Assembly (NCBI GenBank): GCA_043821385.1
Contig: JBDRCV010000002.1
Coordinates: 1-37,347 of the forward strand
DNA length: 37,347 nucleotides
DNA from: an archaeon
GTDB taxonomy: Archaea; Iainarchaeota; Iainarchaeia; Iainarchaeales; JBDRCV01
Direction: 5' to 3'
The number at the start of each line of letters is the position of its first letter. Within the stretch, counting starts at the first letter, position 1. A model generated the notes under the pieces. That model did no database searches. It was not told where the DNA came from and was given only the letters and a program-made list of their open reading frames with translations. Shown here piece after piece: positions 33,915 to 34,958 of this stretch. A program made the position numbers and the translations under genes.

Positions 33915-34958
33915 ATGGTTAAAAAGGTTAAAGAAACAGTGGTAAAGGTTAAAGAAACAATTGTAACTGACGACTTTCCTTCAACTGACAAAGTTCAAGT
34001 TTCAAAAAAACTAATGGGGCAAGTTATAGGCCAAGATAGTGCAGTCGAGTTAATGAAGAAAGCGGCAGCACAAAAAAGAAACGTTTTACTTATTGGAGAT
34101 CCTGGCACTGGAAAATCAATGCTTGCTCAAGCAATGAGTGAAGTCATGCCAGTCCAAGAATTATTTGATGTAATGGTTTACCCTAATGAACTTGACTCTA
34201 ATAATCCTAAAGTTCGCACAACCAAAGCAGGAGAAGGACAACAAATAGTTCAAAAAGAACGCCTTTCAGCTAAAAGTTTTGATGACAACATGCGAATGAT
34301 TTCCTTTCTATTGCCTTTAGGTTTCTTTATTTTTTCCAGTGTAATCTGGCAACTAGGATTTATTTCTGACGTTATTTACGCTGCCACATTACTTTTAGGT
34401 GGCATAATTTTGATTGCCGCAGTTCTAGGATCACAACTAAAAGTTCGAGCAACAAAAACCGCACCAAAACTATTAATTAATAATGCAGGAAAAAAAGTAG
34501 CACCATTCATTGAAGCAACCGGGGCAAAAGCAGGAGCCCTTTTCGGCGATTGTCGTCATGATCCGTTACAATCGTTTATTGACGAAGATAAGTTCGTGGT
34601 TGTACGTGGCAACAAGGAAGAAAAGTTAACCTTTGAACAGTTATGGAAAGAAATGTCTGAAAAACATTCTGACTTAGTTGAAAAACATGAAAATGATTAT
34701 GAAGCCATAGTTTTCCCTAAAGATGTTAATGTTTTCACTTATGGTTTAAACTCTGAAGGTGAAGTGGTCAAGACAAGAATTTACTCAATGAACCGCCGAC
34801 CTTATAACTCTGAAGTAGTTGAAGTTACAGCAAACAATTCAAAGTTAACTGTCACTCCAGAACACAAGGTTAAAACTAAAGGCGGAGACAAGAAAGCAGT
34901 AGAAGTTTCAGAAAAAGATTCTTTGATTAGGTTGTTTGATTCTAAGGTTAATTATTAA
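33915..34958 (+). CDS. lonB: archaeal membrane-bound Lon protease (LonB), N-terminal fragment fused to an intein N-terminal half. Lacks Walker B, protease domain and intein C-terminal blocks.
   Basis: [38 protein letters not shown] (Walker A). Two TM helices at about residues 128-172. [24 protein letters not shown], then at S220 (nt 34572) [13 protein letters not shown]...LTVTPEHKV (intein blocks A and B). Stop at 34956-34958. Confidence 0.7.
   Translation: [347 protein letters not shown]

Follow-up and report, generated by a model that had tools for sequence, protein, structure and literature searches.

The stretch of DNA considered here (the window) comprises the 37,347 nucleotides of contig JBDRCV010000002.1 (positions 1 to 37,347) in the genome assembly GCA_043821385.1 of an archaeon of the Iainarchaeota, and carries near its right-hand end an open reading frame (ORF) whose product begins as LonB, the membrane-bound protease of archaea, and ends inside an intein, the protein sequence on either side of which is termed the extein. 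The ORF (33915..34958, forward strand) encodes 347 amino acids between an ATG start codon and a TAA stop codon at 34956-34958, and its product is held at NCBI as MFH1751376.1, labelled 'MAG: ATP-binding protein [archaeon]', MAG being a metagenome-assembled genome. Compared with related loci, it is very likely the N gene of a two-gene (possibly three-gene) lonB, the products of which would be joined by the trans-splicing of a split intein. The features of the ORF are the following:

33915..34571, forward strand: LonB N-extein, residues 1-219, matched by TIGR00764 and ending in ...HDPLQ [10 protein letters not shown]
34095..34118, forward strand: Walker A motif (P-loop) GDPGTGKS, residues 61-68, from the translation; many P-loop Pfam families match residues ~53-81
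34296..34430, forward strand: predicted membrane hairpin within the AAA+ domain, residues ~128-172, two hydrophobic helices in the translation, at a position conserved in homologues
34572..34955, forward strand: predicted N-terminal half (IntN) of the LonB site-a split intein, 128 amino acids without cysteine, with Ser1 at 34572-34574; from TIGR01445, a PDB profile search, AlphaFold2 (AF2) with Foldseek, and alignment to the LonB homologue P0372
34854..34865, forward strand: intein block B, TPEH, IntN residues 95-98 (ORF residues 314-317), columns invariant in the 40-sequence IntN alignment A2
34956..34958, forward strand: TAA stop codon ending the N-half at the endonuclease-insertion loop, where inteins are canonically split; an equivalent stop is found in 14/14 relatives, and the endonuclease domain of the LonB homologue P0377 begins here

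The initial annotation of this DNA, made from the sequence alone, had assigned residues 1-219 to LonB, with a Walker A motif and a membrane hairpin, and this assignment is borne out by the NCBIfam LonB model TIGR00764, which matches the ORF with E=1.6e-54, although only over profile positions 3-206 of 608. The score of 185.5 bits lies below the equivalog cut-off of that model (516.6 bits), because the C-terminal two thirds of LonB are missing, and the ORF does not count as a full-length LonB. The N-exteins of relatives share 55-66% identity with that of the window, in alignments that stop at residue 219 every time; the closest relative is only 64% identical, the lineage being poorly sampled. 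That the hairpin spans the membrane is probable in view of its hydrophobicity and of the known character of LonB. At the 5' end of the ORF, upstream of the region that aligns with homologues, a 21-nt tandem duplication is present at 33923-33964 (KKVKETVV / KVKETIV).

The boundary between extein and intein can be placed exactly, since intein-free relatives (L013, L015, L017 and others) pass from the equivalent of residue 219 straight into SGGLGTP..., which makes S220 (34572-34574) the first residue of the insertion. The switch that had been proposed at this serine is thereby upheld, and a nucleophilic residue directly follows ...HDPLQ, as expected of an intein. Moreover, the model of the intein N-terminal splicing region (TIGR01445, cut-off 24.5 bits) scores 27.9 bits on the whole ORF and 30.5 bits on residues 220-347 alone. 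The IntN retains all eight residues that are invariant in the family, namely W25, K31, S72, N74, T95, P96, E97 and H98. The length of 128 amino acids, the TxxH motif of block B and the position of the stop codon all agree with what had been read from the sequence.

As regards the fold, residues 220-347 are, on the evidence of a structure model and of profile searches, half of the HINT domain of an intein. The AF2 model of the 128 residues, built on the 40-sequence alignment, has a mean pLDDT of 85.4, and the 14 PDB structures that Foldseek ranks highest against it are inteins without exception. At their head is the Pho RadA intein (TM-score 0.70, root-mean-square deviation 2.6 A, 121 columns), and both the N-fragment of Npu DnaE and the cysteine-less split intein of Aes123 PolB1 (9hth) are within the same 14, in line with the resemblance to the N-halves of known split inteins noted at the outset. 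In addition, a HINT profile made of 14 concatenated IntN and C-terminal half (IntC) pairs of relatives plus the IntN of the window, when searched against all PDB sequences, returned inteins as its top ten matches, including Mja KlbA (2jmz, 1.9e-11) and the naturally split NrdJ-1 (2e-6). The alignment to NrdJ-1 extends through the IntC blocks, the IntC motif of the relatives falling on blocks F/G. The assignment of the HINT fold covers the N-half and is based on the AF2 model with Foldseek, the PDB profile search and TIGR01445; a cis mini-intein of the homologue P0372, modelled with the IntN-only alignment, reached a pLDDT of 63 overall and of less than 50 over its C-terminal third, and is uninformative on IntC. 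An alignment to which IntC rows had been added (A5) was discarded, as MAFFT had laid IntC onto the pseudo-symmetric strands of IntN. In that alignment IntC [21 protein letters not shown] was set on the IntN segment NRRPYxGEVVEV..KLTV, and the pseudo-two-fold symmetry of the HINT domain is apparently visible at the level of the LonB split-intein sequences themselves.

The architecture found in the window is not restricted to it. Among the 120 best matches of the protein in a collection of 5.8 billion proteins, 117 share the succession of N-extein and IntN, with 320-390 amino acids that run through ...HDPxQ into IntN and then stop. The first residue of the intein in these 117 homologues is Ser (66), Cys (49) or Thr (2) and never a non-nucleophile; TxxH is kept in 116/117, and the median length of IntN is 130 amino acids. 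The named sources are MAGs of Diapherotrites / Candidatus Iainarchaeum, i.e. DPANN archaea. Two of the relatives' contigs, labelled Chloroflexi (L007, JAFCCG010000016) and Falkowbacteria (L008, JAFCBY010000034), carry the archaeal split lonB locus under bacterial MAG names and are probably mis-binned.

The corresponding C-half has been found in the relatives. With the C-terminal part of LonB as the query, proteins were obtained that start with a short peptide ending in ...VHN [22 protein letters not shown] and continue with SGGLGTP..., and a second search with such a C-half gave 123 matches, of which 82 begin with an IntC (median 42 amino acids) before SGGLGTP and 41 are intein-free full-length LonBs of the same clade. 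The terminal Asn of IntC is present in 81/81 sequences and is preceded by His (HN) in 74/81. In all 14 loci of relatives with readable DNA, the N gene stops 5-20 codons past the conserved segment ...TPEHKV..K.A..S..D.L, and the C gene, provided with its own ATG, follows on the same strand after a gap of 287-4331 nt; at least 21 further N/C pairs lie on contigs of identical size. The C gene of the relatives encodes an IntC of 39-46 amino acids ending in ...VHN, then SGGLGTP..., Walker B and the Lon protease domain, and one such C-half scores 642.8 bits by itself against TIGR00764, over profile positions 180-607. A complete LonB would be the spliced product only, if the sequences are read in this way. 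The order of genes is conserved as well: RNase Z on the reverse strand, the N-half, a variable insert, the C-half, DUF373 on the reverse strand and Band_7.

Both halves of the intein are under purifying selection in the relatives. The ratios of nonsynonymous to synonymous substitution (dN/dS), taken among relatives with unsaturated dS, are 0.11-0.20 for IntN, 0.09-0.17 for IntC and 0.04-0.13 for the N-extein; the pairs that include the window are saturated, and these figures come from the relatives only. A separate observation concerns two relatives, L027 and L032, whose N-exteins are near-identical (pN 0.03) and whose IntC, both ending in ...VLVCN, differ little (pN 0.055), whereas their IntN are far apart (pN 0.335), one being of a Cys1 type ('CHLGFN') and the other of a Ser1 type ('SSIDED'). 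Because IntN diverges while N-extein and IntC remain nearly identical, the contrast suggests that IntN has been swapped by recombination and that one IntC may serve both types of IntN.

The origin of the split can be followed in cis counterparts of this intein, inserted at the identical LonB site, which were retrieved by an exhaustive HMMER search with the IntN of the window. One of them, P0372, is a LonB of 837 amino acids with a contiguous mini-intein (Ser1 ... VSN/SGGLG), with which the ORF of the window aligns up to residue 345 of 347. Another, P0377, is a LonB of 1159 amino acids with a Thr1 intein that contains an internal domain (residues 370-674) starting where the ORF of the window ends, which places the break of the window's intein in the loop between blocks B and F that accommodates the endonuclease. 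The internal domain of P0377 is 31% identical (4e-51) to a free-standing ORF of 325-385 amino acids that 10/15 relatives have between the two halves, in the same orientation, and this gap ORF is also homologous (7e-26) to a domain fused behind the N-half of a second intein in the same loci. The gap ORF has the motifs LFGDGG and FLDGLLASE, and its profile (A4) gave one weak match to LAGLIDADG_3, beyond which no significant PDB or Pfam match was obtained. Its motifs and its homology to intein-embedded domains point to a homing endonuclease of the LAGLIDADG type. A malate dehydrogenase identity that another profile (A3) had returned for the gap ORF was spurious: the gap ORF of L008 is an Ldh_2 gene.

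The endonuclease gene is degenerate in L003 and absent in L008, L027, L029 and L033. Other genes found between the halves in relatives include a Zn-phospholipase-C-like ORF, an Ldh_2 dehydrogenase and an AAA_14/DUF4143 ATPase with a WYL protein. Because the relatives carry such different cargo there, the space separating the intein halves behaves as a slot of variable gene content.

The window contains only the left part of this conserved arrangement, the locus being cut by the end of the contig. Its remaining features are:

32954..33865, reverse strand: RNase Z-like gene (Lactamase_B_4), left synteny anchor of the split lonB locus, divergent and upstream of the N-half in L001, L003, L004 and L005 as well
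34959..37347, no strand: intervening block up to the contig end, with three orphan ORFs, in the slot that holds 0.3-4.3 kb of variable cargo in relatives
35023-35715, forward strand: orphan ORF of 230 amino acids with an N-terminal hydrophobic segment (ORF call)
35724-36122, forward strand: orphan ORF of 132 amino acids with a hydrophobic segment (ORF call)
36178-37155, reverse strand: orphan ORF of 325 amino acids (ORF call)

The three orphan ORFs gave no significant Pfam or PADLOC match and only a weak one to PHROG 20794; searches of the PDB, GenBank phages and IMG/VR, made for the 325-aa ORF alone, were uninformative. A tblastn search of the whole 37-kb window with the IntC and with parts 1 and 2 of the C-extein of a relative returned nothing at E<=1e-3; the window, the 2.39 kb that follow the stop of the N-half included, lacks intein blocks F/G, Walker B and the Lon protease domain, and neither a gene nor a remnant of the relatives' endonuclease ORF is found in 34959-37347 or elsewhere in it, as had already been stated of these 2.4 kb. 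As far as its 2.39 kb show, the window falls in the endonuclease-less class. The G+C content of the downstream block is 0.30, against 0.33 upstream, and the composition is continuous across the junction, around which a scan for bacterial promoters and terminators and a search for repeats were uninformative. The gap of at least 2.39 kb is within the range of the relatives' gaps (up to 4.3 kb), and the simplest expectation is that the partner of the window lies just beyond the contig end. In a scan of GTDB representative genomes with a chimeric N+C query, the contig of the window was not returned, and none of the accessions of ten NCBI-sourced C-halves falls in the MFH175... range of MFH1751376.1.

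Site a is not the only place at which LonB is interrupted. In four relatives LonB is in three pieces (L001 12195-15261; L029 8004-11098; L031 8016-11053; L032 8034-11073), a second split intein being present at site b (...TEPVP/CDFVLVA). There, the middle ORF, of 618-630 amino acids, has the site-b IntN continuing into a LAGLIDADG-like endonuclease domain, and its stop overlaps the start of the ORF for the second IntC and the protease by 1-17 nt, JAZDDZ010000048 being an example of such a three-piece locus; we know of no natural protein assembled by two split inteins. Furthermore, the LonB of these DPANN archaea is a hotspot for inteins, with at least five insertion sites (P0365, P0375; L027 6223-9195), those beyond a and b being occupied by cis inteins within Walker A (GTGK/C...SHN/SMLAQ), at APFVDA/C...THN/TGSRAG, and after [13 protein letters not shown]/C.

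The reading of the ORF as the N gene of a lonB with a naturally split intein is favoured because the architecture is conserved (117/120 homologues), a partner is present in every relative examined (14/14 loci), both intein halves are under purifying selection and the intein part has the HINT fold; the first suggestion of such an intein is in this way supported, and the N-half is very probably neither a one-off pseudogene nor an assembly error. According to the mechanism that may be proposed, the N gene would give a membrane-anchored polypeptide made up of the Walker A half of the AAA+ module and the 128-aa IntN of a class-1 split intein (Ser1, TPEH), while a second gene beyond the contig end, most probably within a few kb and on the same strand, would give an IntC of about 40 amino acids that leads into SGGLGTP..., Walker B, the lid and the Ser-Lys protease domain. 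The N-half, anchored in the membrane, and the soluble C-half would meet through IntN and IntC to form the HINT domain. The conserved residues are those of class-1 splicing, in which an N-O acyl shift at Ser1 would be followed by the attack of Ser+1 of the C-extein and by the cyclisation of the terminal Asn. The released product would be a normal LonB of about 640 amino acids, with the native HDPLQ/SGGLG junction between Walker A and Walker B.

In evolutionary terms, the ancestor would have been a cis intein with a LAGLIDADG-like homing endonuclease, which later came to stand as a gene of its own between the halves (a 'fractured gene'), and which in some lineages, apparently including that of the window, would have been lost or replaced by other cargo. 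A more far-reaching version is possible but doubtful: that LonB is matured here only through a cysteine-free split intein (Ser1/Ser+1) which has outlived its endonuclease and has become an obligatory assembly step maintained by the host, and that this genome might also use site b, like sister genomes in which LonB would be assembled from three polypeptides by two unrelated and orthogonal split inteins.

Several results weigh against the proposed trans-splicing. The Pfam Intein_splicing model PF14890 stays below its threshold on the window (17.6 against 35.8 bits), as does the model of the intein C-terminus, TIGR01443, on the IntC of a relative (13.2 against 15.6 bits); a check of charge complementarity between IntN and IntC gave no clear pattern of opposite charges as described for DnaE-type split inteins; and the case for splicing consists of sequence, predicted structure and comparison. 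The penultimate His is absent in 7/81 IntC sequences, variants such as LVSN, LVCN, LVYN, LIAN and LVKN taking its place, which would also suit an enzyme whose two fragments assemble without splicing, the intein halves acting as a tight heterodimerisation module and the HINT domain being retained in a two-chain LonB. This alternative draws on splicing being a prediction, and on known cases in which the fragments of an enzyme are kept together by domains of mobile-element origin (PMC3045599). It is nevertheless improbable, for the residues needed by the chemistry alone are all kept (the nucleophile of position 1 in 117/117, TxxH in 116/117, the terminal Asn in 81/81, and Ser+1), Ser, Cys and Thr replace one another at position 1 but non-nucleophiles never do, and a bulky HINT domain between Walker A and Walker B would probably disturb the packing of the hexamer.

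The remaining objections concern the window itself, where trans-splicing would require a partner that is presumed from the relatives: the partner is not in the window, the other contigs of this MAG were not found in the collections searched (the metagenome collection was outside the scan), and the local arrangement is atypical, with no endonuclease gene and with orphan ORFs that resemble nothing between the halves of the relatives. These same facts, together with a closest relative at 64% identity in a poorly sampled lineage, could indicate that in this genome the N-half is a decapitated relic or decaying pseudogene, its C-half having disappeared or been pushed aside when the three orphan ORFs were inserted. 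Archaea usually have no Lon protease besides LonB, and no second lonB is seen in the 37 kb; the ORF is intact across 347 codons, with Walker A and all invariant IntN residues in place, and 2.39 kb without a partner are within the normal range of gaps, which reach 4.3 kb in relatives, and a relic is about as improbable as an unspliced two-chain enzyme. The disruption of the gene by insertion of the downstream block, offered as an alternative in the initial annotation, is right to the extent that genes do sit between the halves; the break, however, is old, conserved and located at the endonuclease-insertion loop, and there has been no recent inactivation. Finally, a chimeric join at ~34960 between a contiguous intein-containing lonB and unrelated DNA, through faulty assembly or binning, has hardly any probability left: the sequence is a MAG contig, but 14 loci assembled independently in different projects, and more than 100 database proteins, have their stop at this very position of the alignment, and the composition does not change across the junction.

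Protein-ligation tools are built from natural split inteins, of which there are few; most of those known are in DNA-metabolism enzymes of cyanobacteria or phages. Should the more far-reaching version hold, LonB would, as far as we can tell, be the first protease with a natural split intein, and its intein the first family to be widespread in cellular archaea. The full-text literature searched, which leaves out subscription journals and intein databases, mentions only contiguous LonB inteins, in Euryarchaeota, and yielded no account of one that is split, in agreement with the earlier impression that such a protein had not been described. The family provides well over 100 diverged natural pairs of IntN and IntC in Ser1 and Cys1 versions, and a pool of candidate cysteine-less and possibly orthogonal split inteins, sites a and b coexisting in one protein. 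Moreover, because related genomes still contain its cis ancestors, both those that carry the endonuclease and those that do not, it offers an unusually complete natural series for studying the passage from a homing intein to a split gene maintained by its host. From a practical point of view, the current labels ('ATP-binding protein', 'S16 family serine protease' or 'LonB, partial') mean that surveys of DPANN genomes would miscount these genes as pseudogenes or as the absence of Lon.

Among known systems, the split intein of PolB in Nanoarchaeum equitans, which Choi et al. reportedly described in 2006 and whose two halves are said to lie far apart in the genome, likewise interrupts a cellular gene of a DPANN archaeon, is split by nature and is divided at the canonical site. 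It differs in having a DNA polymerase as host, whereas the LonB family occurs in many lineages of Iainarchaeota and in at least one Nanoarchaeota MAG (L033), and has extant cis relatives. The cyanobacterial DnaE inteins (Npu/Ssp) have the same fold and split topology, Npu 4qfq_A superimposing on the modelled IntN of the window with a TM-score of 0.67 (normalised to the target). DnaE, however, is Cys1/Cys+1 and strongly charge-complementary, in contrast to the cysteine-free Ser1 IntN of the window and the Ser+1 of the relatives, with no charge pattern evident. The use of Ser1/Ser+1 and the lack of an essential cysteine are shared with cysteine-less split inteins such as that of Aes123 PolB1 (PDB 9hth; PMC13014065), although these are of phage origin, the identity is ~18%, and the intein of the window is known from sequence and model. 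In the same host protein family, ten cis-splicing LonB inteins of Euryarchaeota are counted by Novikova et al. 2016 (PMC4760082); these are contiguous, and a relation to them stands at the level of the host family.

A close parallel is that of the fractured genes, in which a free-standing homing endonuclease gene lies between the halves of a split intein (Dassa et al. 2009, PMC2677866). As in those, the LonB host gene is broken at the endonuclease-insertion point into nearby ORFs on the same strand, a free-standing endonuclease ORF homologous to the domain of the same-site cis intein is present in 10 of the 15 relatives, and the IntC of 39-46 amino acids is inside their range of 33-54. On the other hand, their 26 loci are DNA-synthesis and repair enzymes, mostly of phages, and not a membrane protease of cellular archaea; their endonuclease is Vsr-like instead of LAGLIDADG-like; their IntN is shorter (88-105 amino acids against a median of 130); and the gap in LonB often holds ordinary cargo too (PLC-like, Ldh_2, AAA_14 ATPase). 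The window itself departs from that definition in 34959-37347, where no endonuclease gene is seen. Split inteins and fractured genes are well known, and to these the LonB case adds a natural family of large size, in which some members are free of cysteine and cis ancestors survive.

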